Positions 11,535 to 55,831 of a stretch of 64,000 bases of DNA are shown here, one piece after another. The stretch lies in the NCBI GenBank assembly GCA_951406725.2, contig OX597822.1, forward strand, positions 103,850,001-103,914,000. Reading direction: 5' to 3'. Source of the stretch: Octopus vulgaris. Its lineage: Eukaryota. Both the position numbers and the translations under genes were made by a program. Within the stretch, counting starts at the first letter, position 1; each line of letters opens with the position of its first letter. A model generated the notes under the pieces. That model worked only from the letters and a program-made list of their open reading frames with translations. It was not told the DNA's origin and made no database searches.

Positions 11535-12007
11535 TACACGCATGCATACACATTATCATACTTCACGCACACTTTTCTTCACCAACTTCTATCATATCCG
11601 CTTCTAAAGCTTACTTCCATTAATCTCTGTTAAAAACATCACTATTTCTTACCTATTGTTCGAGCTTGATGCATCGTTGAATAACTAAATTCACTGTTTC
11701 CTTTTTTTTCATGTCCATTCCTTTTCCCTCTACTTCTTGCTGTGATAAAAGACCATCGTCCGAGACATGGATTTTAACCTCTTTTAAAGCTTTCAGTACA
11801 TTGACGTCTCACGTTATTCGCAAGTTTTTCTTTAGCTTGTGTCCTAATTTAAGTACTGCTTACCTGGAAACCATGCTAAGACAACTTAACAGGGATTAGC
11901 TCCGGATTCATATATTCCTTTTCTTCTCTTTTACATTCTCTTTTAATTTTATATTATCCCTTGAATACATCATACACATTAATCTGGTCTTTCTTTCTTC
12001 GATCCTT

Positions 12008-12076
<69 letters not shown>

Positions 12077-12077
<1 letters not shown>

Positions 12078-13042
12078 AATCGAGGAGTACCTGACCCGCC
12101 TGTTCAGGACGACTTTCGGGCCAGGGCCATGGACAACTTCCAGAGATCCCTGGCCTGGCAGTGCTACCGAGAAGCGCTACCCGTTCGGGATAAGCTCTAC
12201 AGACACGGCTCGAGAAACACGGGGCCGACCTGCCCGAGATGCGGTCAGAGCGACGAAACCGTTCTGCACGCACTCGTGCAGTGTCCAACAATTTCCGACC
12301 TGTGGGCTTATGTCGAACAACTGCTGTCACGTGTGGGACGAGTCGGTTTATCAGCTCAGTCTATCGTCAATATTGTCACGCCTCCTTCCTTCAAACGGGA
12401 AGGAAGAGCTATTTTCATCATCCTTGTGGCTATGGCGAAAGAATGTATCTGGTGGACGCGTCTGAAAGGATTGGAGACAAACACTTTCCTCTCTGGTCAA
12501 TCTCTCATCAACGTCTTCAAGTACCACTTGAAAAGGAAAGTGAGAGTAGAGAGGCAAGTTTTGTCTAGCGAATGTTTTAAAAAAGATGGGTGAATGTAGC
12601 ATGAATGGCACGTATGAATGACGAAGCCACCTTGAGCATAATCCTATGAACCCAGAAATTGAAAACAGAGAGTTGCTTATTCGCAAAAAAAAAAAAAAAG
12701 AAATATAACATGTGACTCCATTGACCGAGGTTACCGTGGTCTTTTCCGTAGGCTTTTCTTTCCACGGGTAAACCTCACCTGTCCTCCCCTTTACACTTCA
12801 TATTGACATTTCTGTGATAACGATCCCTATTGATCAAATTTTATTTTATTTTTATTTTTATTTTTTTTTCCTCTCCCCCTTTTTCTTTAACCCCCCTTTT
12901 TTGTCCTCTTTCTCTCCTTTTACGATCCCTTTTGATCGAAACTCCCCCCATCCTTTTTTTTTTTTTTAAACCTTCAAAAGAAAAGCTCTACCTTGTAATT
13001 TGTTCTATCTGTGTGCAGCCCTGTGTGGCTAATAAAGAAACA
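12077..13042 (+). mobile_element. 5'-truncated L1/Tx1-clade LINE (zf-RVT C-terminus and 3' UTR) inside a (TATC)n array
   Basis: ORF segment AWQCYREALPVRDKL...TCPRCGQSDETVLHALVQCP..LW..VE..IWWTR (CCHC zf-RVT type), T-rich UTR, ends AATAAAGAAA; (TATC)n on both sides. Confidence 0.85.
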
Positions 13043-15663: not shown

Positions 15664-16792
15664 AACACACACACACACATATATATTTTTTGTTTATAAT
15701 CATACCACATTATTTTATGGTTAATACCATATAGTTTTCTGGTGCATCTAAGTTAAGTACCGCATTCAAGTGAATTCAATAGAACTCACTTGAATCTTAA
15801 TTGCTTTTACTTAAATATATATATAATAAATAGATGAGTGTATTTTTACCTTGTTAACAATTAACACGGAAAAATAAATAAATAGTTACCAGGGCAGCAA
15901 AAATCTCACAAGTAAAGGTGTTGTAACTCCTTGAGTAAAAAATGGAGATATAATTTATATCTTCTCATAATAACAAACTGTTAAATGTTAATACATTTAC
16001 TAATACTAACATTAATTTACCTAATACCATCCAACCCTCTAGAAATATTAATAACAAGGTTATTGTATCTGAAGTCAATTCCAATAGAATTAAGTTTATG
16101 TCAAGTAACTCTAAGATTAAAAATTCTATATACCAGTGTATAATCAGTACTCGTAATAAAGTACGATTTTACATTGGAAGCACATCGTTAGAGTTATCTA
16201 AAAGAATTTCTATCCATTACTCAACATTTTCTACTATAGTTAAGATCTATAGTCTCCTTAACGTGCAAGCATAATCTACCCACCTGTAGCAGTACAAGCA
16301 ACTTGTGTTAATAGATTACGTAAACCAATCATTAGCGGACGACGCTAAAGACAGTGAAGGATAAATCACATATGTACTACAGAGAAAGTATTAATCAAAG
16401 TTATTTTCGCTCTTTCTATGGAAAATTTATCTGCAGCTGTATTACATATAAGCTCCAAAAAATTTTCAATGGTAATGTTTGTTCTATATTTAATCTTCTT
16501 ACTGTGTTTGCATTTACGTCCTCTCTATTCAGATATCTCTAATGCTGTACATTGTCTTAATTAAGTACCGTCAATTATATAAGTTAATTGCGAAAACAGG
16601 AAAAAAGAATGCTTCATCCATAAAGTATTGATTAAGAAAATTGATATTACTAATGACTTAGACGCCGCAACATATCTGGAGAAAGTCATACATTTTATTC
16701 AAAGAGATCCTAATTGTATGGAGGTTTGACGATATTATATGAATGCATTTTTAAGCATCGAAATTGTTTTTTAATATGTATGCCATTGTTAA

Positions 16793-18050
16793 AGCGGCGA
16801 GCTGGTAGAAACGTTAGAACGCCGGGTGAAGTGCTTAGAGGTATTTCGTCTGCCGTTACGTTCTGAGTTCAAATTCCGCCGAGGTCGACTTTGCCTTTCA
16901 TCCTTTCAGGGTCGATAAATTAAGTACCAGTTACGCACTGGGGTCGATGTAATCGACTTAATCCGCTTGTCTGTCCTTGTTTGTCCTCTCTGTGTTTAGC
17001 CCCTTGTGGGTAGTAAAGAAATAGGTATTTCGTCTCTCTCTATGTTCTGAGTTCAAATTCCGCCGAGGTCGACTTTGCCTGTTATCCTTTCGGTGTCGAT
17101 AAATTAAGAACCAGTAACGCACTGGGGTAGATATAATCGATTTAATCCGTTTGTCTGTCCTTGTTTGTCCCCTATGTGTGTAGCCCCTTGTGGGTAGTAA
17201 AAAAATAAGAAATGTTAGCAAGCCGGGCGAAATTCTTAGCGATATTTCGTCTGCCGCTACGTTCTGAGTTCAAATGCTGCCGAGGTCGACTTTGCCTGTT
17301 ATCATTTCGGGGTCGATAAATTAAGTACCAGTTACGCATTGGGGTCGATGTAATCAACTTAATCCGCTTGTCTGTCTTTGTTTGTCTTCTCTGTGTTTAG
17401 CCCCTTGTGGGTAGTAAAGAAATAAGTATTTCGTCTCTCTCTATGTTCTGAGCTCAAATTCCGCCGAGGTCGACTTTGCCTTTCATCCTTTCGGGCTCGA
17501 CAGATTAAGTACCAGTTGCGTATTGAGGTTGATCTAATCGACTGGTACCCTATCCCAAAATTTCGGGCTTTGTGCCTAGAGTAGAAAAGAACATTTATGC
17601 CATTCTTAAGGCGGCGAACTGGCAGAAACATTAGATGCCGGGCGAAATGATTAGTAGCATTTCGTCCGTCTTCAAGTTCTGAGTTCACATTCCGCCCAGG
17701 TCGACTATGCTTTTTCACCCTAACAGGGTCGATAAAATAAGTACCTGTTGATTGCTGGGGTCGATGTAATAGACTTAGCTCCTCCTCGAAATTGCTTGCC
17801 TTGTGTCAAAATTTGAAATCAATATGTGTGCCATTCTTGAAGACAGGGAGCTCGCAGAGTCGTTAGCACACTGGGCAAAATGCTTAGCGGAATTTCGTCC
17901 GTACTTACGTTCTGAGATCAAATTCCACCGAGGTCGACTTTGCTTTTCATCCTTCTGGGGTCGATAAAATAAGTAATAGTTGAACACTGAAGTCGATGTA
18001 ATCGACTTATCCATCCCTCAAAATTCTTGGCCTTGTGCCAAAATAAAAAA
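16793..18050 (+). mobile_element. Head-to-tail cluster of ~6 SINE C units
   Basis: GTTCTGAGTTCAAATTCCGCCGAGGTCGAC core recurs near 16860, 17045, 17260, 17445, 17680 and 17910. Confidence 0.9.
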
Positions 18051-22146: not shown

Positions 22147-22546
22147 TATTTCTACTCCAAGCGCAAGGCTTCGAATTTTGAGGGAGGGGTGTCAGTCGAT
22201 TAGATCGACCTTAGTACGCAACTGGTACTTACTTAATCGACCCAGAAAGGATGAAAGGCAAAGTCGACCTCGGCGGAATTTGAACTCAGAACGTAGCGGC
22301 AGACGAAATATCTGTTTCTTTATTACCCACAAGGGGCTAAACACAGAGGGGACAAACAAGGACAGACAAACGGATTAAGTCGATTACATCGACCCCAGTG
22401 CGTAACTGGTGCTTATTTAATCGACCCCGAAAGGATGAAAGGCAAAGTCGACCTCGGCGGAATTTGAACTCAGAACGTAACGGCAGACGAAATACGGCTA
22501 CGCATTTCGCCTGGCGTGCTAACGACGGTGCCAGCGCCGCCTTATG
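22147..22546 (-). mobile_element. SINE C dimer flanked by one TSD
   Basis: 16-bp TSD ATCTGCTATCTTTAAT at 22131-22146 and 22547-22562; internal tail/body junction at ~22312. Confidence 0.9.
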
Positions 22547-22754
22547 ATCTGCTATCTTTAATAAAGCCACAATGAGGCTTATCGGCTAAATATCAACATT
22601 TCCTTGTTTCATTATGAGATTTTCAAATATTTTGGGATGATATCAAGAGAGATGTGCTTAATATTCATTGTATTGTAGCAATCACTATGTTTTACCTAAA
22701 TCAGATTCAGTCATTCATTTGTAAATCACACTATCATAATAAAGTTTAATATTA

Positions 22755-22956
22755 CAGTAATCCCTCGACTATCGCGGGTGCTACGTTCCAACATCACCCC
22801 ACGCGATAGGTGAAAACTCGCGATGTAGAAACAGTACTGTACTGTATATTTTTTATTATTTTTATTTATATATATTTTATTACAAATGTAAAACAACAGC
22901 ACAGAGGAATCGACGTAAGCTTAAATAATAAACCGCGAAATGGTGAGGGATTACAG
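22755..22956. mobile_element. pogo/Tigger-type MITE
   Basis: TA|CAGTAATCCCTC ... GAGGGATTACAG|TA inverted termini with TA duplication. Confidence 0.8.
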
Positions 22957-22964
22957 TAGTTTCA

Positions 22965-23876
22965 AATTTTAGGACAAGGCTAACAATTTCATGAAGGGGT
23001 AAGTCGTTTACATCGGTCTTAGTGCTCAACTGGTAATTTCTTTATTGATTCCGAAAGGACGAGAAGGCCAAGTCGACCTCGGCGGAATTTGAACTCAGAA
23101 CGTTAAGACGAACGAAATACCTATTTCTTTACTACCCACAAGGGGCTAAACACAGATGACAAACAAGGACAGACAAACGGATTAAGTCGATTATATAGAC
23201 CCCAGTGCGTAACTGGTACTTATTTAAGCGACCCCGAAAGGATGAAAAGCAAAGTTGGCCTCGGCGGAATTTGAACTCAGAACGTTAAGACGGACGAAAT
23301 ACCTATTTCTTTACTACCCACAAGGGGCTAAACACAGAGGACAAACAAGGACAGACAAACGGATTAAGTCGATTATATCGACCCCAGGTGCGTAACTGGT
23401 ACTTATTTAAGCGACCCCGAAAGGATGAAAAGCAAAGTTGGCCTCGGCGGAATTTGAACTCAGAACATAAAAAGAGACGAAATACCTATTTCTTTACTAC
23501 CCTCAAGGGGCTAAACACAAAGAGGAGAAACAAGGACTCAGAACGTAACGGCAGACGAAATACCTATTTCTTTTTTACCCACTAGGGGCTAAACACAGAG
23601 GGGACAAACAAGGACAGACATATGTATTAAGTCGATTATATCGACCCCAGTGCGTAACTGGTACTTAATTTATCGACCCCGAAAGGATGAAAAGCAAAGT
23701 TGGCCTCGGCGGAATTTGAACTCAGAACATAAAAAGAGACGAAATACCTATTTCTTTACTACCCTCAAGGGGCTAAACACAGAGAGGACAAACAAGGACT
23801 CAGAACGTAACGGCAGACGAAATACCGCAAAGCATTTCACCCGGCGTGCTAACGTTTCTGCCAGCTCGCCGCCTTA
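22965..23876 (-). mobile_element. Tandem array of ~6 SINE C units
   Basis: Junction CGAAATACC|TATTTCTTT recurs at 23121, 23303, 23486, 23564 and 23748; single head at ~23820-23876. Confidence 0.9.
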
Positions 23877-28800: not shown

Positions 28801-29959
28801 TCTTCGTGTAGCTTACTATTATTTTAATCTTATGGAAATCTACAAAGAAGATATCCGTTACAGCAGAAGACATTTTAATCTCAGGATGTAGATGAAAGAA
28901 GATATAATGTATTTTGTACTGCATCACAATTTCGGCCAAAAGCTGCATCATAGGCTTAGGAATTTGTTTGTGTTGAATGAAAACCAAAATATACGTTGAA
29001 TATAGAGTGGAAAATATGTTAGTGACAAAAGGAATCGGCATTAGTCAGAAAATAAAATCCTGCCACGTCATCAGTTTACAGGGAAACTACAGCTTCTGTA
29101 TAACAGCAATATTGCATTGATAAGATCCTATACAAAACATGTATATATATATGATATATTTCAATTATATAGATGTGAGAGAAAATACTAAAATAAAATA
29201 CAGGGTGTGAAAGATATTCAAAATATAGATTGATAACAAATGGAAATTTGAGAACGTGTAGGTGGAATATTATATCTTTTTTGCAAATGATTCTATGGTT
29301 TATATTTCGTGTTAGATATTATCAGCAATTTTAATCTTTCAGCATCAGCGAATGATATAATCAAATAATAGCTTTCATACTTAACCTAAAATATGTAACC
29401 CTAAGAAATAAGCTAAGTTCAAAATATTTTAGTTTCACCTATGAATACATACCTTGATATCGTTACTAAGTATATAATATATTGTAAAGGTAACCTATAG
29501 TTTATTCTATTGTTCACTTTACCATTCTTTCTTACTTTGATTCTTTATTTTAGTTCGCATGTAAACCCGTTACAAAGACATTAATTAGTATGAAATTAAT
29601 AATAATGTACATATTGTCTGTTTATTGATACAAAAATAATGAATCAGATTAGGAGTCGAAAATAATTAATTCCTTCGTAGTGGAAGATCATATAATCAGC
29701 TATAAATAATGTGTTTCTTTTTACTACGTTAAGGACATCGGGTTTTGTTCGAACTGTCGTGTTTTAAAAGATAATTAAAGTTTCAAATGAGAATTATTTC
29801 TAAAATGTAATACGTTTCAAATGACAATTGGTCTTTGTTCCTTTTAAAAGATGAGGATAAAAGAGATAAAAAGCTTTCACATCTCTGAGAATAAGTATAA
29901 AATTTATGATCAAACTCTAGATTATGGTTTCTAAGACAAAACATCTCGAGGATTGAGTC

Positions 29960-30502
29960 ACCCCAGAGGGCACTCACTAAACGAATTGAAGGCATGGCTG
30001 CTCTCGATTATTGGGATCGCCTTAAAACCTTGAAACTTTACTCTCTCCAGCGTCGCCGTGAGCGGTACATCATTTGTACGATGTGGAGAATATACCGCCA
30101 ACTTTGCCCAAACGACCTGAACATTAGCTTCAAGGTTCATCCAAGACTGGGACCACGGGCCATACGTCCCCTGTCCAATTCAAGATCACAGCATACATGT
30201 ACACTGCAACATAATTTCTTTTCCTCAACAGGCCCTGCCCTATTTAACATTGTCCCGAAAGAGATCAAAGAGGAAAAGGATCCCATCAACTTTAAACAGA
30301 GTCTGGATCGATTCCTTCAGAGAATACCAGATAATCCACCCATAATTGGATACAACTCACCCAACAAGAACTCACTACTTGAATGGACCATAAACAAAAC
30401 TTGACTTAAACAGGATTCGAATAATCCTATCAGGTGGTGCTATTAAGTTAGACATGGCCTGGACCAATCTTTGGTCGAAACATATCTAAGTTTATCTAAG
30501 TT
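29960..30502 (+). mobile_element. 5'-truncated CR1-type LINE (ORF2 C-terminus and 3' UTR)
   Basis: LDYWDRLKTLKLYSLQRRRERYII..W....GPALFN..P...FKQSLDRFL..IPD; 3' stem-loop and (ATCTAAGTTT)2 tail. Confidence 0.9.
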
Positions 30503-31996: not shown

Positions 31997-32223
31997 GGTG
32001 AGCTGGCAGAAACGTTAGCACGCCGGGCGAAATGCTTAGCGGTATTTCGTCTGCGTTACGTTGTGAGTTCAAATTCCGCCGAGGTCGACTTTGCCTTTCA
32101 TCCTTTCGGGGTCGATAAATTAAGTACCAGTTACGCACTGGGGTCGATGTAATCGACTTAATACCTATGTCTGTCCTTGTTTGTCCCCTCTGTGTTTAGC
32201 CCCTTGTGGGTAATAAAGAAATA
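31997..32223 (+). mobile_element. SINE C (young, Tx1-like tail)
   Basis: 14-bp TSD GGTTAGGTCTGCAC at 31983-31996 and 32224-32237. Confidence 0.93.
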
Positions 32224-33146
32224 GGTTAGGTCTGCACGTGTTGTCTTTCTTCTGTAACCATTGGACTTTCCGTAGATGGCATGACGAATAAGGATAGCCA
32301 TGAAAAGACATCTGTTCATCATTAGATTATAGGAATAAACGCTTGTACAACACCAGTACCAGTATCGGAGTCTCTGTGATTAGTACCTAGTGACAGGCCT
32401 AAGTGAGATGACAAGTAACCACGTAAAACCGCAGGTTTTATATTAGTGTGTTTCACTCCTCTAAAGAATGCTGTGGTAACAGTCAGGATTCTCGCTTTTA
32501 GTGGTTTTGGTGCGTGCCCTGACATTAACCAAGAGTATTTCTGAGAAGTGGTTCCTTTTAATCCTTATTGTTCCAAGGTCTGTTCTAAGCCGGAGTATTA
32601 GCCTCTGTCAGGGTCCCACCTATTGTTTGATTGACATATGCGATGACACTCCATTTGAGTACCTGGGCACAGAAATACCCTTGATTGGTGTCAGGGTACG
32701 CAGTAAAGTCTCTAGAAGTGTGGGACACCTTGGTGTTGATTATGTCCTGGGTATAACTTTAAACAACATCCCGTAAAGGGACTCTGGTTCGGAAATCCCG
32801 GGGTTTTGAGGAGTGTAGAAAACATACATAAATATATACGTATATGCATGTATTATACATGCAGATATATAAACAGCGGGATTCATAAGCATATATTTTA
32901 ATGATGTCAGGCGCGTAGAAGCAAATACTGTAGCATTAAAATAAAACATAAAAATAAAGATAAAAGAGACAAGTAGCATGAAACCCCAAGAAAAAAAAAC
33001 AGAAACAAATTGTAAATATTCGAGGTAAGTTGAATATCACTAATATACCAAAATAGAAGACATGTTTTAAATAAAAAAAATTGTCTAAGAGTAAAAAGAA
33101 CATGGAGGAAGGAAGAACAAATTATGCCAAATTGAATAATCACCTA

Positions 33147-34579: not shown

Positions 34580-35548
34580 TCATCATAATCATAATCGTTT
34601 AATGTACGCTTTCCATGCTAGCATGTGTTGGACGATTTGACTGATGTCTGGCGAACCAGATGGCTGCACCAGGCTCCAATCTTGATCTGGTAGAGTTTCT
34701 ACAGATCGATGCCCTTCCTAACGCCAACCACTCCGAGAGTGTAGTGGGTGCTTTTACATGCCATCGGCACGACGGCCAGTCAGGCGGTACTGGCATCGGC
34801 CACGCTCAAATAGTGTTTTTTACGTGCCACCTGCACAAAAGCCAGTCGAGCGGCACTGGCAACGATCTCGCTCGAATGTTTGTTCACGTGCCAGTAACGC
34901 GATGCTGGTAACGATCACGCACGAATGGTGGTTTTTACGTGCCACCGGCATAGAAGCCAGTTAGCTGCCCTGGCGACGATCACGCTCGGATGGTTCTCTT
35001 AGCGCTCCACTAGCACGGATGCTAGTCATCGAATTTTTCGATTTCACTTCCCGCAACAGGTCTTCACAAGTAGAGTTTAGCGTCCAATGAAGGAAAGGTA
35101 CGCATAAGTGGGCTGGTTATACCCCTGGCATAGGCCGCGAGGTTATGGTCTCACTTGGCTTGCCGGGTCTTCTCATGCACAGCACATTTCCAAAGGCCTC
35201 GGTTACTAGTCATTGCCTCGGTGAGGCCTAATATTGGAAGGTCGTGCTTCACCACTTCATCCCAGGTTTTCTTGGGTCTACCTCTTCCACAGGTTCCCTC
35301 AACCGCTAGGGTGTGGCACTATTTTACACAACTATCCTCATCCATTCTCGCCACATGACCATACCAGCGCAGTCGTCTCTCTTGCACACCACATCTGATG
35401 CTTCTTAGATGCAACTTTCCTCTCAAGGTACTTACACTCTGTCGAGTATGTACACTGACATTACACATCCATCGGAGTATACTGGCGTCATTCCTTGAGA
35501 GCTTACGCTTGTCCTCAGCAGTCATGGCCCATGTTTCACTGCATGGCT
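34580..35548 (-). mobile_element. 5'-truncated RTE-clade LINE with internal ~55-65-bp repeats in the 3' UTR
   Basis: SETWAMTAED..KL.RNDASILRWMCNVS...VQERRLRWYGHVARMDEDSCVK; TTTTACGTGCCACC repeats at 34750-34950; (ATG)n-type tail. Confidence 0.88.
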
Positions 35549-35698
35549 GTTCGTACACATGTGTCAAGGAATTAGGCGCTATAGAAAACCATAAAGGAAA
35601 AAATGAATCGTCGTTAATCGTGACTGGGGGTGCTGAATAGCACCTATATTGCAAGAGATATGAGTGAAAACTCTTCGAACTGCATGAAGCACGCAATA

Positions 35699-36202
35699 TC
35701 TATATATATAAAACTGTAGTTGTGTGAGTGTCTGTTCCCTTCGATTTAGATTCCTAACTACTCCCACATTTTGCGGTGCAGTTTAACCAAATTCGGGTAT
35801 CTTATAGTCGTGATTGATATCGAGCCCGTCTGAGTATTAGCGCGCGTCTACGATGAGTCTACGATTTTAAAAATAATTTAACATCATTTTTTATTCCATT
35901 TTAATGCATAATTTTTCGTTTGTCGATGGCGGCGGAGTTGGCGTCCATGGTCACACCTGCACCTGTTTGCTTCTCCCCTCCCTCGTGAAGCTGTGGGGAA
36001 GGGAGTGTAAGGAAATCAACGTCGTAAAGCGTTGTCAAGGAGACCAGCGTTCTTTTAGAACAACGACTTCATGGCTTGAAGACACCAAAACAGAAATGGC
36101 TAAGAAAGCCCGAATTGGCATCTATAAGGGAAGTAACTCACTAAAAATGCTTATATAGTTATTTCCCTTACAAACCCGAGCAACGCCGGGCGATACTGCT
36201 AG
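35699..36202 (+). mobile_element. Non-autonomous Helitron
   Basis: A|TCTATATATATAAAAC ... CCCGAGCAACGCCGGG CGATACTGCTAG|T; related to 57965-58365. Confidence 0.9.
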
Positions 36203-37183
36203 TATCTATATAAACACAGACAGGGGAGATAAGCGCCCCATGAACGAAGAGAGGAGCACTGGACTAGACTTGTAGGATCAGCAGCAGAAATAACCGTGAC
36301 GATTTAATTTTTCCTTTATGGGGTTATATTGCAGCTAGTTGCTTATCTTAACCTTTAATATACACATTAGCATTTCGTTAAATCAGCCATGAATTTATAT
36401 GGTAAATATATATATTGGCAGATCAATTTAGCCAAACCAGCTGAGCGATGGAGTAAGCATTGCTCACGAGTGTACAACTGATAGACGAAACTAGTCAAGT
36501 AAAAGAGTGTTCTGGCTTCGTTCATGGTGTGGTCATCACTCTTTCTGTCAGTGTATATATATTGTGTGCTTCGTGCAGCATTAAAAGTTTTAACACTTAT
36601 TTTTTGCAATAAAGGTATTGTAGAGTACCTTTAGTCACAACTAGTGACGATTAAATTTTTCCTATGTATATATATATAAGTATATATATATATAATATAT
36701 AATATTTTACTATAAAATTGGATTCAATCCTAAATCTGATTTTTCCCTGTAAATTTGGATTTATTCCCTAATATTTATTATCATATATATATATATATAT
36801 ATGTATTTAAAAAAGGAGATGTGGAACACGAGTTGTAATATATAAAAAAAGAAATGAAGAAAATGGTGACAAAATAATTTAAGTAATTTAAGTAATTTAA
36901 TTAGGTGAAAGTTCTTTTTACCGGTTGCGCATTTGTTATGCTTATCAAAAGATGTTTTTTTAAGAGAGATAGAGTTACTTTCTGATAGATTTTTTCCTCT
37001 TATTTCCTCTTATATATATATATATATATATAATATCTATATCTATATCTATATATCTATCTATCTATCTATATATATATATATCAGTAATAATAAAAGG
37101 GTGAAATTAATTAATTAGGGATAATTATCAATTACACCAAGTAGATTTCGGTATGTAAAAGCCCCATTCGGGGAAAATTTAAG

Positions 37184-37432
37184 TAATACTAAGTAATTAA
37201 GGGTTTAGCAACGAATTGCCTCACCAACACACCGAATTTAGAAATAGCAGTCAAAGAGATATAGCTATTCCTTCTACTAAAAGGGGGATCTCAGTAAAAA
37301 CACAGCACTTAAGTGCTGTGTTTTTACTGAGATCCCCCTTTTAGTAGAAGGAATAGCTATATCTCTTTGACTGCTATTTCTAAATTCGGTGTGTTGGTGA
37401 GGCAATTCGTTGCTAAACCCTTAATTACTTAG

Positions 37433-37437
<5 letters not shown>
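37184..37437. repeat. Perfect spacerless palindrome (127-bp arms)
   Basis: Centre CACAGCACTT|AAGTGCTGTG at 37310/37311; arms are the same family as the ends of 37802-38646. Confidence 0.95.
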
Positions 37438-37481
<44 letters not shown>

Positions 37482-37984
37482 TATAAACATATATATTTGC
37501 ACAATAAGCTATGCACCATATGCAAAGCTATTCAAGAAACAGTCTTTATGTATTATAAACAGAGATTTTATGCATTATTTCTTAATCCTTTATTTACTCT
37601 AACAACTCTGCAATTCTGCTTAAATTATGTTCACTCTTGAACCACTTTGCTAGGTAGCTAAAACACCACATTTGTTTTGGTAGTAGTTCAAATGGGAGTT
37701 TTAGTGACCAGCCAACACGAGGACTTATCGTACGTATATATTACATTATGCCATCAGATGGAATACATACACGCACATGTGGCTGCATGTTAAGTAACTT
37801 GGTAATTAAGGGTTTAGCAACGATTTGCCTCACCACACACCGAATTTAGAAATAGCAGTCAAAGAGTTATAGCTATTCTTTCTACTAAAAGCGAGATCTC
37901 AGTAAAACCACAGCACTTGAAAGACAAACACAAACAGGCAAGAGAGGAAGAAATGACGGCAATCTATCAAACAATTTTAAGTCA

Positions 37985-38075
37985 CCTACGGACGTACGTT
38001 TCGAGATTAAGTTTTAGGAAAGCATAAGAATTAGATAATCATGTCTTACCCAACTTCTTCTCTCATCAGCGTAGG
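37985..38075 (-). ncRNA. Type I hammerhead ribozyme
   Basis: Reverse complement of 38390-38480. Confidence 0.85.
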
Positions 38076-38389
38076 ACACTACAATTATGAATAATTGTAT
38101 ATTAAATTTCGAGATACTAGAAGGCATCATCTCAACACAGTATCAGAGCGAGCTAAAACCGTTACCAGTATCACTAAATTCAAACTGATAACCATATTTC
38201 ATCCCAGTAATTGACCGTAACATCTTGTCTTGGCTACACGCGGGTGGGAAGGGGCTGCTGACACAAACTTTCATTCACACTTTGAATTTAGTGATACTGG
38301 TAACGGTTTTAGCTCGCTCTGATACTGAGTTGAGATGATGCCTTCTAGTATCTCGAAATTTAATATACAATTATTCATAATTGTAGTGT

Positions 38390-38480
38390 CCTACGCTGAT
38401 GAGAGAAGAAGTTGGGTAAGACATGATTATCTAATTCTTATGCTTTCCTAAAACTTAATCTCGAAACGTACGTCCGTAGG
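38390..38480 (+). ncRNA. Type I hammerhead ribozyme
   Basis: CCUACG-CUGAUGA-GAGA[52 nt]UCUC-GAAA-CGUACG-UC-CGUAGG: perfect 6-bp stem I, canonical core, GUC cleavage triplet, palindromic stem III. Confidence 0.85.
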
Positions 38481-39138
38481 TGACTTAAAATTGTATGATA
38501 GATTGCTGTCATTTCTTTCTCTCTTGCCTGTTTGTGTTTGCCTTTCAAGTGCTGTGGTTTTACTGAGATCTCCCTTTTAGTAGAAAGAATAGCTATTTCT
38601 AAATTCGGTGTGTGGTGAGGCAAATCGTTGCTAAACCCTTAATTACTTAGTATATGTATGTATATAGCTTTTAGTTGTTTCGGTCATTAGAATGCGGCGA
38701 TGTTGGGGTACAATTGTGTTTTACACATATAGTACGTTTGACAAACTTCTATTGCTGAGATTATATCTTTAAGAAGAACGCAGAATGCATTTAGGGTGGA
38801 TTTTACATAGCACATATAGCGGGTATTTTTGTGTTGAATTTCAAGAATGATATAATTTAATACAAAGTTTTCAACTCACCAAATCTTATATACGTACTTT
38901 CATACGCCACAGACAATTTGATTAGTCGGTGGATAATTTTCGAAAGTATATCATCGATAGAAAGAAAAAAATATATTGTATATAAAGTTTTGTATTAAAA
39001 GAAAATATTATCAAAGGCCTTTGTAAAGATCGAGTTTTAGCTTTACCCTACTGGCTAAAACACGACTCTCACTTGTGCTGGGGATGGGTGACAAATCACA
39101 CAGAAATTCTTGAGTTATATGTGTTGGTTGTTAATTTT

Positions 39139-40327
39139 TATATATATAAAACTGAGAATGTGATCTGTCTGTGTGTCTGTCTGTCTGTCAGTGTGTTTCC
39201 CTAAAACTTGAGAACTACACGACCAATTTCATTCAGATTTTACACATGCCTTACTTAGGGTCCGGGGAGTGTTATCAGCCAAAAACATTTTTAACTTTTT
39301 GCCTAGGGCGAGCCCACAGCAATATCATATCTTCTCCACTACGATTCCCTAAAACTTGAGAACTACACAACCAATTTCATTCAAATTTTACATATGCCTT
39401 ACTTAGGGTCCATGTAGTTTCATGGGCAAAAAAAGAAAATGTTCAACTTCTTGCCTAGAGCGAGCCCATAGCAATATCATATCTTCTCCACTATTTCAGT
39501 ATTACGTGTTAAAAGTGAAACAAAAACATTTCTCTATTTTATGCCAAATACTCTCACTTTAACAATAAAAATAATAATAACAATTGAATTATATGTAGTA
39601 AGTAATAATTAAAATCAAACTAAAGTATAATATAATCGTAACATAAAAAAAGTAAAAATAGCAATTGGTATAAAATTGCATCAATGACTTGAACTTGAAT
39701 AAATGGTTTCACATGAATGGGAATAAATTAAAAATAAAATTAGCGTGCAGAAATGGAATAGTCCAGATGGATAATAAGAAATTAAATTAAAGAAAATACT
39801 ATTGTCTATAAAGTATACAATGTAGAGAAAGAAGAAGATTTGAACACCTGGAGGAAAGCAGCTTCGAAAAGTGTCTTGGTGCGACTATGAAAGGTATCTA
39901 ATCAGAGGCGGTAAATTCGCCACAATAGAAGCAAGATTCGAGTCAACGAATCGTGCAAGGGAGTACTCGACTCGAACTTGCAAAGTGGAAATATTTTATT
40001 TTTACCTTTATATCTGGGACGTAGGACGTCCCGGAAAAAAATTTAAAATGCCCCCCCTCCCCCGAAGTAGAGGTAGGCTGGATTGTAGCCACACTTCTAT
40101 ACAAGAGGGAGGACAAGATACAATTGATCGAAATTACAAGAGATGGGTTAACAATTCCAGTCTGTTATATATTTTGAGTATTGTTATCACTAGCGATATC
40201 AAGATATAACTTTGTACTTTGTATTTTATGTGTAGATGTATATATATATATAGATGTACATGTAATACGTACACATATATACATGCACTAGCACTATGAC
40301 CCGGCAACGACGGGTCTTTAATGCTAG
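39139..40327 (+). mobile_element. Non-autonomous Helitron with an internal ~150-bp tandem duplication
   Basis: TATATATAAAACTGAGAATG start; unit repeated at ~39197 and ~39345; GACCCGGCAACGACGGGTC hairpin then CTAG|T; segments shared (inverted) with 53680-54175. Confidence 0.75.
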
Positions 40328-45802: not shown

Positions 45803-46422
45803 CTTCTATCTTTTGCTTGTTTCAGTCATTAGACTGCGGCCATGCTGGGGCGCCGACTTGGAGAATTTTTTTAGTCAAATGTATCAACCCCAGTACTTAT
45901 TCTATCGGTCTTTTGCCTACCGCTAAATTACGGAACATAAACACACCAGCACCGGTTGTCAAACGGTGGTTGAGTCAAACAGACACAGTGACACACCTAC
46001 ATATACACGACGGGTATTTTTAGTTTCCTATTTCTTTACTACCCACAAGGGGCTAAACATAGAGAGAATAAACAAGGACAGACAAACGGATTAAGTCGAT
46101 TACATCGGCCCCAGTGTGAAACTGGTACTTTATTTATCGACCCCGAAAGGATGAAAGACAAAGTCGGCCTCGGCGGAATTTGAACTCAGAACGTAACGGC
46201 AGACGAAATACCGCTAAGAATTTCGCCCAGCGCGCTAAAGTTTCTGCCAGCTCGCTGCCTTAATTTTCAGTTTCCATCAACCAAATCAACTCTAAAAAGC
46301 TGTGGTCTGCCTGAGACTATTGTAGAAGATTCTTGCCCTAAGTACCACGCAGTAAGACTGAACTCGGAACCATGTGATTGGGGGGAAGCAAACTTCTTAC
46401 CACGCTCTCACATCTCTGCCTG
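45803..46422 (-). mobile_element. SINE D split by a SINE C insertion (46029-46262, minus)
   Basis: D tail at 45803-46028, D head at 46263-46422; duplicated TTTT(C/T)AGTTTCC around the inserted C copy. Confidence 0.85.
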
Positions 46423-46439
46423 TATATATGTATAAATAT

Positions 46440-46752
46440 CCATCACCATCACCATCACGTGACCGACCAGACCATCAGATGTTGTTACACATCGCTGGTC
46501 ACAATGCGTTCGCATTGTTTTAGCCTTCGAATGACGCCACCCCGCTGGCTAAGCGAGCAGGCCAACAGAAGAATGAGTGGGAGAAAGAGTGGTGAAAGAG
46601 TACAGCAGGGATCACCACCCCCTGCCGAAGCATCGTGGAGCTTTTAGGTGTTTTCACTCAATAAACACTCACAACGCCCTGTCTGGGAATCGAAACCGCG
46701 ATCCTACGACCGCGAGTCCGCTGCCCTAACCACTGGGCCATTGCGCCTCCAC
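46440..46752 (-). mobile_element. SINE (head A, tail 3)
   Basis: Head A with a different 3' half ending in (TGG/TGA)n; TSD ATATGTATAAATAT. Confidence 0.88.
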
Positions 46753-46972
46753 ATATGTATAAATATATGCGTATGTATATGTGTATGTATATACAAAACG
46801 GAGTGTTAAAAAGTAATTAATACAGATTCACGATATGTTAAGATATCGAATGTTCAAGCGTCATCGGCCTCTGCTTATCGTCTGTTATCAGCTGATCGAA
46901 AATCGCGAATCGCTGTCGCTCTAGTATTATTCATCTTAAATTATGCTTTAATATTATTCATCGTTAATTATG

Positions 46973-47198
46973 CGAGCAGGCAGAATCTTTAGCACACCGG
47001 GCGAAATGCGTAGCCGTATTTTGTCTGCCGCTACGTTCTGAGTTCAAATTCCGCCGAGGTCGACTTTGCCTTTCATCCTTTCGGGTTCGATTAAATAAGT
47101 ACCAGTTGCGCACTGGGGTCGATGTAATCGACTTAATCCATTTGTCTGTCCTTGTTTGTCCTCTCTGTGTTTAGCCCTTTGTGGGTAGTAAAGAAATA
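46973..47198 (+). mobile_element. SINE C (Tx1-like tail)
   Basis: TSD GTTAATTATG. Confidence 0.9.
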
Positions 47199-47866
47199 GT
47201 TAATTATGGATATGTATATAGAGTGTGTTGTAGACCATGGTGATAATTGAACTAAGAATGAAATACACGGGAAATAAATACCGTAATGATTCCGCCAGTT
47301 CACCACTCAAGTCCGGTTTTTATATCTTTACCTAGGGAAGGAGAGAAGGGAAAGTTGACCTGAGCGGGAATTGAACTCACGACATAAATAGTGAAAATAA
47401 ATACAAACAAGGCAGTTAGTTTGAAGTTCTAATACTTCTGCCGGTTCACATTCGTAAGAATTAGCAACATTGTACTACAATGGTTCGTAAACATTTATTT
47501 TATTTATGTTTACGACTGTAGAAATAAGATAAGAAACATCTGCCCTGAATCCTCATCAAACTATAGAAAATATAATCATCATAGATATAAAAAGATATAA
47601 CACACACACAAAAAAAAAAATAATAAATAGTAAACGGTATAACGAAGTATAGATCTTATATAAAGAATACATAATTAAAAAACAAAACACGTATTATTTA
47701 GGAGAAAGTAAATGCTTTATTAAAATAATGGAAACAAGAAAGCGTAGAATTTTATATATTTTTTTGATATAATAGAGGACAAGATAATAAGAAAAAAACT
47801 AAGATGTAAAAACATAAAGCAGCAGGTGGTTTAACTTAGTACAAGAGGTTTCCAAAAAGTCTTTCA

Positions 47867-49644: not shown

Positions 49645-50402
<758 letters not shown>

Positions 50403-50409
50403 AATAATG

Positions 50410-50480
<71 letters not shown>

Positions 50481-50481
<1 letters not shown>

Positions 50482-51212
50482 TTACCAAAAAGAAATTACC
50501 AAAAACATGTAATGAAAAGAAATATTACAAGTAACTGCAGAATATGTGGAGATGGACAAGAAACAATAAATCATATTATCTCTAGCTGCCCAGTCCTGGC
50601 TAAGAAGGAATATATTCACAGACATGACAGAGTTGGAACTTACATACATTGGAAGCTATGCCAACATTATGGAATAACAACAGAAAAAAGATGGTATAGG
50701 CACACACCAGAAAAGGTCACAGAAAACGAGAAAGCAACCATACTCTGGGATATGCCGATACACACAGATAGAGAAATTAAGGCCAATAGACCAGATATAG
50801 TTGTCAGAGACCATGAAGAAAAAAATGCTTTCTAATTGATGTATCAGTACCGGCAGATGACAACGTGTCTCTAAAAGAAATGGAGAAACTCTCAAAATAC
50901 AAAGACCTGGAAATAGAGGTAACCAGAAAGTGGAATGTAAAAACAGAAACAATCCCTATCATAGTAGGTGCATTAGGCATGATAAAAAAATATTCAGACA
51001 AATACATAACAAAAACACCAGGACTTACAAACACATATAACATACAGAAAATTGCACTACTAGGCACTGCACACATCCTACGCAGAACACTTTCCATACA
51101 ATAACCATCAGAGCATCACAACAAATCACAGCACATACCCAAGGCACACAGAGCTGCGCTCGGTAGTGAAGTGAAAGCACGCTATAAAAATAAAAATAAA
51201 ACTACTGAATAA
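50481..51212 (+). mobile_element. 5'-truncated R4/Dong-type RLE retrotransposon in (AAT)n
   Basis: CRICG..QETINHIISSC (CCHC), YIHRHD, NRPDIV..D (PD-D/E nuclease), KLSKYKDL; one frameshift at the A-run near 50820. Confidence 0.9.
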
Positions 51213-52401: not shown

Positions 52402-52454
52402 ATCTTCTTTTTTAATTGTAAATTCCATAGTCTTTTCAAATGGCTAATAATGTG

Positions 52455-52772
52455 TGCGCGCGTGGAGGCGTCATCCAACCAAAGTAGAAATATATGGGAA
52501 ATTACCACCTGTATCATCTCTAGTGAAAGGTAGAAGAGTCCAGTTTGCTGGACATTGTTGTAGAGCTGAAAACGAGGTAATTTATACTCTTTTCACCTGG
52601 AAGCCATCTGCTCGCGATACCAGAGGGCGCACACTCTCCTACCCTGATGTAATCTCCAGAAATACAGGCATCCAGCAACAGGACCTCCGTAATGCTATGA
52701 TGGACCATGAAGTCTGGCGTAACATAGTAAATTCCATTGTCTCGACCGCGGTCCAACAATGAATAAATGAAT
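52455..52772 (+). mobile_element. RTE-group LINE 3' fragment
   Basis: WRRHPTKVEIYGKLPPVS..VKGRRVQFAGHC.R.....LFTWKP...RGR...AMMDHEVWR. Confidence 0.8.
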
Positions 52773-54719: not shown

Positions 54720-55015
54720 CCTCATACATGTTTGGGCGTCGAAGAATTGAACATAGTCTTCATTCCAACATCTGCACGGTCTTCCCCTCCCTCTTTATTT
54801 TCTGGATGTGTTGTCCACTCTGTCAGTTTTCTATTCCATCTATTATCCTTTCTTCTAAACACATGTCCCACAAAAGACGATTTTAAGATTTTTATTTTCC
54901 AGGTAATGTCCCTTAAACCTGTTACCACTCTTATCCTACTGTTTCCCCACTTATCCTTCAGCGTTCCCATTTCCATGGCTCTTTGTGTTGGTCTTAATTC
55001 ATTTTCAAAAACTCT
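54720..55015 (-). mobile_element. Old RTE LINE remnant
   Basis: TQRAME...NSRIRVVTGLRDI....LK..FVGHVFRRKDNRWNRKLTEW. Confidence 0.7.
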
Positions 55016-55831
55016 TGTTGGTAGTCCATGTTTCTGAAAACTATGCGTACTATGTCTAATCATGTTTCTGAATGGTAAGCGGCACACACTACTTAAAAAT
55101 CTTTCTCTGTGGTCACATATAAAGTTAAAAGATATTAAAATTCTTGCATAATCCTTGGTGACTTAAATAACACCATTTCAGGTAAATTGCATATATTTTA
55201 TTGAGCCAACCGCCAAATCAATATACATTGTCAGACCAAGCACTCCATACATATTATTCAGACAAATGATCTCTATATTTTCTGCAACTGTTATAAAAAT
55301 CTCTGCTTCGCAACGCTAGCTAAGCCCCTGCCGCATTTAGTCAAGTATTTCTGCCTCATTCGATTTTCTGTCTTCCCTCACCCTTGTTCTTTCCACACAC
55401 CCTCGGTTCTTCGCTAATTACTACGTCCAGTTCTTCCTTTCCAGAACCCTGATTCTCTAATTTCCTCTTTTCCCATATTATTTTGTGCAGTGTTAACCTT
55501 ACAAATGTTCAAAAGGAACATTATGACACCATTTATTGAAGTCACCCTGTTTATGAAATGCACATAATGTGATTCATGCTGAACCTTCTAGAAGCTTCTA
55601 TTTCTCTGAATCATATCTACCGAGGATGGAATTATGTTTAGTACTGATTACAAGAGAACACACGTTAATTATAGAGTGCTCGGTTGTTTACATCGATGAA
55701 CCATTCAAAGTTATCGTAAGAGCCAACGAGGAAGCCTGCGTGTGGTCGATCGATCATCTAAATTTATCAATGGAATTTCCTGCAAATACACGAAGCTGTC
55801 TTAAGAATGGAATAGGAGTAAACATATTGTT

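Follow-up and report, generated by a model that had tools for sequence, protein, structure and literature searches.

Two hammerhead ribozyme motifs on opposite strands lie within one fold-back of the Octopus vulgaris genome, at 37802-38653 of the window (the whole 64,000-nucleotide stretch of DNA analyzed here, AT-rich and rich in repeats), which raises the question of what kind of element left them there and whether their inverted arrangement has a role. We consider it probable that the locus consists of two copies of an abundant hammerhead repeat without an open reading frame (ORF), one direct, the other inverted and 5'-truncated, with a unit of about 585 bases, a predicted circular RNA and insertion of the type known from Penelope-like elements (PLEs). 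The best reading of the repeat itself is that of a retrozyme-like, non-autonomous Penelope parasite, with the fold-back as a by-product of insertion. The ribozyme and its neighborhood comprise the following features.

37985..38075, minus strand: hammerhead in the inverted copy, identical to the plus-strand copy
38366..38385, plus strand: hairpin of 8 bp that precedes the ribozyme and has two compensatory double changes in a subfamily
38390..38480, plus strand: canonical type I hammerhead, from descriptor scan, folding and Rfam, with the predicted cut at 38474/38475
38407..38458, plus strand: stem II extension, 52 bases with a predicted fold of about 16 additional base pairs and a loop of 11 bases, replacing the short loop 2
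38466..38473, plus strand: stem III palindrome ACGUACGU, with 2 bp and a tetraloop in the monomer and an 8-bp duplex in the dimer

Stem I has 6 bp (38390-95 with 38475-80) and leads into CUGAUGA at 38396-402. The first helix of stem II has 4 bp (38403-06 with 38459-62) and encloses 52 bases, GAAA follows at 38463-66, and the predicted cut site lies after C38474. The motif contains CUGANGA, GAAA, NUH and three helices, with helix I open. Both type I hammerheads proposed in the sequence-only reading were thus confirmed as an inverted pair of identical copies, but the two motifs point outward, with their 5' ends central, and do not face each other as that reading had it. Nor do they belong to the minimal class to which they had been assigned. 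Minimal hammerheads of PLEs are described as having a helix II of 7-8 bp, a helix I of 4-5 bp, an unpaired base before stem II and little or no helix III (PMC4209133), while here helix I has 6 bp, the first helix II has 4 bp, G10.1 comes right after A9 with no extra base and helix III has 2 bp. Judged by its sequence, the ribozyme motif is canonical, not minimal.

A second claim, that cleavage would require a dimer, was not supported in that form, since the invertebrate retrozymes for which monomer cleavage has been reported have this type of helix III, 2 bp closed by a tetraloop (PMC7229834, PMC7761336). Yet in the monomer model helix III formed with p = 0.01 and the active fold lay 3.2 kcal/mol above the minimum; the monomer hairpin of stem III was calculated at +2.4 kcal/mol and the duplex at -9.8 kcal/mol. 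Because the energy model disfavors the monomer helix III, dimers may still form within tandem arrays. The two inverted copies can form no dimer in cis, as they lie on opposite strands.

A descriptor scan over both strands of the whole 64-kb window gave two matches, both in the fold-back, and 100 order-1 shuffles gave 0.2 loose and 0.01 strict matches per shuffle. Detection by Rfam, the other route suggested for recognizing the motif, fell short. In a 151-base search, the full Hammerhead_1 model (RF00163) matched 38390-38480 with 23.1 bits, below the gathering score of 34, and the 17 matches listed by a search over 3.5 kb included no hammerhead and none that reached its gathering score, most of them being hairpin families on the second palindrome described below. 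The layout of core, stem I and stem III is like that of the Rfam model, which differs by the stem II insertion, and the low score can be traced to about 56 bases in stem II where the model has 10. In the folding model, the 52 enclosed bases are a helix and not a loop. The pair probabilities of the extension are 0.53-0.98 for the eight pairs tested, stem II runs through a 2x2 internal loop into the long helix, and the contacts of a terminal loop 2 with loop 1 are absent. We found no literature description of a natural hammerhead whose stem II is long or extended, the nearest being an "extended helix III"; a long helix I and no long stem II is mentioned in the available part of PMC6155905. If the fold is correct, the long helix in place of loop 2 hides the hammerhead from Rfam and from short-spacer descriptors, and retrozyme families may be under-counted because this form is missed by standard searches.

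To place the locus within its family, public contigs of four coded runs were aligned to 38140-38670 at 80% likeness. X1 and X3 are DNA runs, while X9 and X14 are RNA by guess only, so that contigs mean presence and not expression. Run X1 (organism A) contributed 1481 contigs to this 531-base stretch and run X3 (organism B) 1088, with summed contig depths of 10^4 to 10^6, which are a sign of abundance and no copy number. The family is abundant under two species labels. Depth peaks at 38608-38643 and drops steeply 5' of 38230, with bins of up to 335,131 (X1) and 582,234 (X3) over 38185-38280. It also dips in the stem II extension, where contigs have loose ends and which is the more variable part of the motif. 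Pattern scans for the family in metagenome contigs and viral contigs gave no match. Against this background, the family members around the ribozymes can be laid out as follows.

37085..37185, minus strand: continuation of the unit, 98 bases beyond the minus copy of the second palindrome, leading back to the unit start at 38185
37184..37437, no single strand: second fold-back of the same family, a perfect 254-bp palindrome (127-bp half, 100%) with (TA)n on both outer sides
37802..38184, minus strand: inverted repeat copy, 5'-truncated and 96 bases shorter than the direct copy
38185..38280, plus strand: "spacer", the 5' part of the unit, with predicted pairing to 38507-38565 beyond the ribozyme
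38185..38653, plus strand: direct repeat copy, including the 96-bp "spacer" and without the last 98 bases of the unit, over which family contigs are continuous

Over 366 aligned bases, 6 substitutions separate the right arm of the main fold-back (38281-38646, plus strand) from the left arm (37802-38184, minus strand), and a deletion of 17 bases at 38591..38592 is found in the right arm only. The 17 bases are present in the left arm, are kept in both arms of the second palindrome and also occur in loose ends of 20 X1 contigs and 16 X3 contigs. The inverted arms are as originally described, but the 96 bases that separate them (38185-38280), taken at first for a spacer, are the 5' part of the repeat and not unique DNA. 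Since these bases stand at family depth and record 9 of X14 spans 38187-38555, the locus can be resolved into a direct copy and a head-to-head inverted copy. That record represents a diverged subfamily, with 44 differing letters and 18 gaps over a length of 387. Weak likeness of the inverted copy extends to about 37790. The arms agree on 11 of the 12 alleles that depart from the majority of both DNA runs, so both most likely derive from one insertion event.

A fold-back might also be produced as an assembly or library artifact, a chimera of a single copy folded back on itself. The junction at 38184/38185 is bridged by none of the 32 contig pieces listed (there are 2687 further pieces), which leaves an inversion at exactly this place unconfirmed by reads, and the neighboring palindrome is 100% perfect and spacer-free. 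The main arms, however, carry the six base differences and the deletion, and at 38507 and at the deletion site it is the left arm that has the family state while the right arm differs. The outer flanks of the two arms are also unlike each other, and contigs from two other runs contain head-to-head joints, one contig in each run, at about 38296/38358 in X1 (short side of 28 letters) and at 38547/38592 in X3. We therefore regard an artifact as scarcely probable. A search for a direct repeat of at least 5 bases across the outer flanks found none, and not one of the four copies in the window begins or stops at the ribozyme cut.

The second palindrome is located 370 bases left of the main fold-back, lacks a spacer and has TTAA at its center. 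It represents the 3' end of the family, each of its halves breaking off at the equivalent of 38547, and is identical to the left arm at 111 of 117 positions and to the right arm at 96 of 100. The head-to-head joint in X3 likewise has one side at 38547, which may be a favored truncation point. Loose ends running past 38653 in 14 X1 contigs, 3 X9 contigs and 1 X14 contig match the 98-base continuation on the far side of this palindrome, and the loose end of X14 record 9 before 38187 corresponds to the minus strand of 37115-37086 (28 of the 30 letters shown, with one gap, compared by eye). Within the window, the minus copy of this palindrome finishes on the 7 letters that open the direct copy. 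As the loose ends behind 38653 and before 38187 both match the 98-base segment, the unit appears to close on itself, the basis for closure being one contig of a diverged subfamily and the 7-base overlap in the window. The length of the closed unit is 469 + 98 bases plus the 17 deleted ones, or about 585, with a GC content of 36% and without a long terminal repeat (LTR). In six frames round the circle there is no ORF, the longest stop-free stretch having 66 codons, in agreement with the non-autonomous, retrozyme-like family first suggested. As to a Pol III promoter, the unit has one mismatched A-box-like site and lacks a B box, and no tRNA was found within the window. The start of the direct copy (38185-38191) and the end of the minus copy (37088-37096) coincide on the unit, and a predicted 6-bp AU-rich hairpin spans the join; this is perhaps a natural boundary or a reverse transcriptase (RT) stop. 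Farther left, at 36875-36900, a 9-base unit is present three times whose reverse complement resembles the repeat at the 3' end of the family, and this may be another decayed end.

Folded as a circle, the joined unit reached a z score of -3.9 and none of 30 shuffles was as stable, compared to -0.6 for the antisense and -2.55 to +2.5 for eight background windows. Stems I and II stay formed in the circular fold (p 0.89-0.95), and long predicted helices of 38205-38263 with 38507-38565 enclose the ribozyme. Windows of 150 bases along the unit had z scores from +2.1 to -2.7, not all of them stable, and in this model the stability signal is long-range.

Variation within the family gave a second view of this fold, as the family alleles are independent of the prediction. 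We considered the 23 sites at which the majority allele differs from the window in at least one DNA run, among 40 variant rows listed (66 further rows exist). Seven of these alleles improve a predicted pair, two keep it, two weaken it and one breaks it; nine fall in loops and two leave a mismatch as it is. Improved or kept pairs (9 of 23) compare to 2.4 expected at random places (P 0.00045), and the single break to 9.5 expected (0 of 20,000 random placements had as few). Compensation is seen directly in four double changes. One is in stem II, at 38405/38460, a G-C pair in the window for which the majority of the family has A-U; two are in the hairpin upstream of the ribozyme, where 38368/38383 goes from C-G to U-A and 38372/38379 from U-A to C-G, with depths equal on both sides in X9 and X14; and the fourth is at 38309/38338. 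In place of G38425, in the stem II extension, the majority of the family has A, so that a G-U pair becomes A-U. Among minor-allele rows, 4 of 16 break a predicted pair, two of these four being explained by a change of the partner or by core position 7. A further pair-breaking row, 38425 to U in X14, was excluded from this count. None of the 40 rows listed falls in stem I or on an invariant core base, although position 7 and loop 3 are touched. The core conservation and stem covariation expected of a type I hammerhead were borne out among these rows, and predicted base pairs are preserved across family variants both inside and outside the ribozyme.

These properties are close to those of animal non-LTR retrozymes, for which a single canonical type I hammerhead in each unit, a helix III of 2 bp closed by a tetraloop, no ORF, a GC content below 45%, a high copy number, proposed mobilization by PLEs and a predicted self-paired circle that leaves the ribozyme free have all been described (Cervera and de la Pena 2020, PMC7229834; Li, Clavereau and Pollet 2026, bioRxiv 10.64898/2026.07.22.740005). 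The length of about 585 bases exceeds the 170-400 bases given in PMC7229834, which speaks against our preferred explanation, and is within the range of 51-972 in bioRxiv 10.64898/2026.07.22.740005. The octopus repeat differs from animal retrozymes by the long helix that replaces loop 2, although mussel retrozymes are also without most loop 1-loop 2 contacts (PMC7229834). It is also known from DNA and contigs alone, and was seen as truncated inverted pairs rather than as the tandem arrays of animal retrozymes. Four further contig joints return to an earlier place of the unit and may be partial tandems, as read from a table without a stated joint kind, and no complete head-to-tail dimer was present among the contigs of the four runs. 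As long as arrays and circular RNA are predictions, we do not file the repeat as a full retrozyme member.

The arrangement of the copies, on the other hand, is that of PLEs. Insertions of endonuclease-bearing (EN+) PLEs share with this locus the 5' truncation, a truncated copy attached in inverted orientation at the 5' end, an extension on one side only, (TA)n targets, a hammerhead upstream of the 3' end and no target-site duplication found (Craig et al. 2021, PMC8557442; Frangieh et al. 2024, PMC11167929). They differ in that the repeat has no RT/GIY-YIG ORF, an extension of 98 bases against 30-40 and a unit that closes on itself. The PLE-style inverted insertion proposed from the sequence therefore matches the published pattern (PMC8557442), and the geometry that first drew attention to the locus is ordinary for Penelope-like insertions. 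Pairs of opposite-strand hammerheads 100-700 bp apart were likewise reported for the Cercyon PLEs of Schistosoma mansoni (Cervera and de la Pena 2014, PMC4209133) and interpreted there as truncated PLEs; the hammerheads of Cercyon are minimal motifs, while the octopus motif is of the canonical type and has a long extension of stem II. The fold-back geometry is already known, and the retrozyme-like family with a long stem II appears to be new. Our literature search found no report of a cephalopod or octopus hammerhead or retrozyme family, although the supplements of PMC7229834 and of the bioRxiv study as well as repeat libraries may list one. A 2026 repeat annotation of Octopus vulgaris describes recently active Penelope-like families, and the words "ribozyme", "hammerhead" and "retrozyme" are absent from its main text as available (PMC13282606).

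The strongest rival holds that the copies derive from an autonomous PLE, perhaps of the Hydra clade, as its truncated ends (pseudo-LTR pieces), that the closed 585-base form arose by internal deletion and is rare, and that a family of circular RNAs does not exist. A bias of depth toward the 3' end, partial tandems, copies that are truncated and inverted, targets of (TA)n and ends located off the ribozyme cut are all PLE traits; the drop in depth 5' of 38230 in particular is as expected for truncated ends of a longer element and counts against our preferred explanation, and the missing head-to-tail dimer fits the rival as well. Hydra-clade elements have canonical hammerheads and (TA)n targets and no CCHH finger (PMC8557442). 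A decayed GIY-YIG endonuclease frame is present in the window at 15954-16271 on the plus strand (Pfam E 0.039), and its short stretch between the GIY-like motif and YIG suggests that it may derive from a Hydra-clade PLE. A profile search of 1.84 billion proteins with this remnant gave six matches, five apparently related, the two best being named Octopus sinensis proteins with 52% and 45% identity; these relatives are misnamed as low-complexity or kinase-like, and a word-based protein search gave no match. Among the rows listed of the PMC8557442 supplement, no octopus member of the Hydra clade was found.

Several observations weigh against autonomous PLE ends. There is no trace of an ORF in the 469 + 98 bases, no RT/GIY-YIG ORF was found in or beside the copies of the window, one contig joins the end of the unit to its start, and pairs are kept over 350 bases on both sides of the cut, as a small self-paired RNA needs. 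In addition, nine short motifs of the unit are absent from the PLE consensus file of PMC8557442, three octopus Naiads included, with the reservation that line breaks and cut runs can hide matches in this file. We consider this rival unlikely on balance. The presence of the GIY-YIG remnant in the window is also in favor of our preferred explanation, against which it counts that this frame is 22 kb off and has no sequence in common with the unit. The two readings are also close kin, as animal retrozymes have been proposed to be derivatives of PLE ends (bioRxiv 10.64898/2026.07.22.740005). Octopus Naiads were considered as a parent and rejected on the same nine motifs and on the 3' end of Naiad_Obim, which is unlike by eye. 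Two cephalopod Naiads are marked in the PMC8557442 supplement as carrying half a hammerhead core.

For a retrozyme-like Penelope parasite, the following course would account for the copies. Head-to-tail source arrays would be transcribed, the hammerhead would cut once per unit at 38474/38475, and a host ligase would close the monomer into a circle. Transcription, cutting and closure by a ligase have been documented for coral, mussel and axolotl retrozymes (PMC7229834), while 8 of 9 predicted frog retrozyme dimers showed no cleavage in vitro (bioRxiv 10.64898/2026.07.22.740005). A Penelope-type protein would then cut TA-rich DNA and prime both strands, with priming sites that lie downstream of the ribozyme cut by about 175 and 275 bases. 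Joining of both cDNAs by their truncated ends would leave the 3' ends on the outside. Priming on both strands followed by cDNA joining would explain outward pairs that end away from the ribozyme cut, and all four copies in the window fit this. The Penelope protein of the anole cuts and extends both strands with a preference for AT-rich sites, and its start points are internal to the RNA, on the downstream side of the hammerhead; it is a predicted dimer and does not require ribozyme cleavage (PMC11167929). Mobilization of retrozymes by PLEs has been argued from co-occurrence and sequence kinship (PMC7229834; bioRxiv 10.64898/2026.07.22.740005), and retrozyme copies that bear the Penelope inverted-insertion mark would give direct structural evidence for it. 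A bolder version goes further, namely, that octopuses carry an undescribed and abundant retrozyme with a circular RNA of about 585 bases, that selection acts on its fold as a whole and that loop 2 of its hammerhead was swapped for a 20-bp helix, with the copies as footprints of a Penelope dimer that primes both strands and their ends at fixed priming sites, the likely partner being an unreported octopus element of the Hydra clade. Taken in full, this is possible but rather doubtful.

Octopuses are animals with heavy RNA editing, and inverted pairs of this repeat would, if transcribed as modeled, add long double-stranded RNA. One may ask whether the fold-back was itself selected as a regulatory device, with an antisense inhibitor of the ribozyme and a long double-stranded RNA for ADAR or Dicer. 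A read-through transcript would silence its own ribozymes. It is predicted to fold into a hairpin of -658 kcal/mol in which stems I and II are lost (p 0.00 in the full fold-back), and the outcome depends on the predicted start, as transcripts starting at or before 38000 lose these stems and those starting at or after 38100 keep them. The sequestration suggested in the sequence-only reading was thus reproduced in the model, but the idea of a built-in design was not, as the arms most likely come from one insertion event and any inverted insertion has the same outcome. Other fold-backs of the family break elsewhere (38547/38547, about 38296/38358 and 38547/38592), some of them without the ribozyme; the arms carry scattered differences and the deletion; and what is conserved is the structure of the single unit, not that of the fold-back. 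No nearby host exon was detected, with 0 convincing Pfam matches beyond repeat remnants in 126 frames, which is a weak test. Changes of A to G were no more frequent than those of G to A in X9 (19 versus 19 in 86 changed places) or X14 (12 versus 13 in 67), as in the DNA runs (10 versus 11 and 9 versus 12), although the lack of an excess is not diagnostic for editing, since the contigs are family-wide. We consider a selected device very improbable, and regulatory-hairpin and artifact readings both have little support.

Other repeats and apparent remnants of mobile elements lie elsewhere in the window. Stretches resembling the end of LINE ORF2, as judged by eye, were found at 11880-12590, 29910-30401, 35322-35699, 50401-50832, 52451-52759 and 54725-55162; two of these had Pfam zf-RVT matches, and a protein search with a LINE remnant gave five unnamed proteins. 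A frame at 972-1325 on the plus strand is like the N terminus of a mariner-type transposase (Pfam HTH_32, E 0.0074). At 39197-39493, 550 bases right of the fold-back, a 148-base unit is repeated as a tandem dimer with 85% likeness. An abundant SINE-like family, probably an octopus SINE, is present at 2629-2936, 16799-18009, 22209-23826, 31999-32306 and 46028-47281, in both orientations and partly as tandem units of 183-262 bases.
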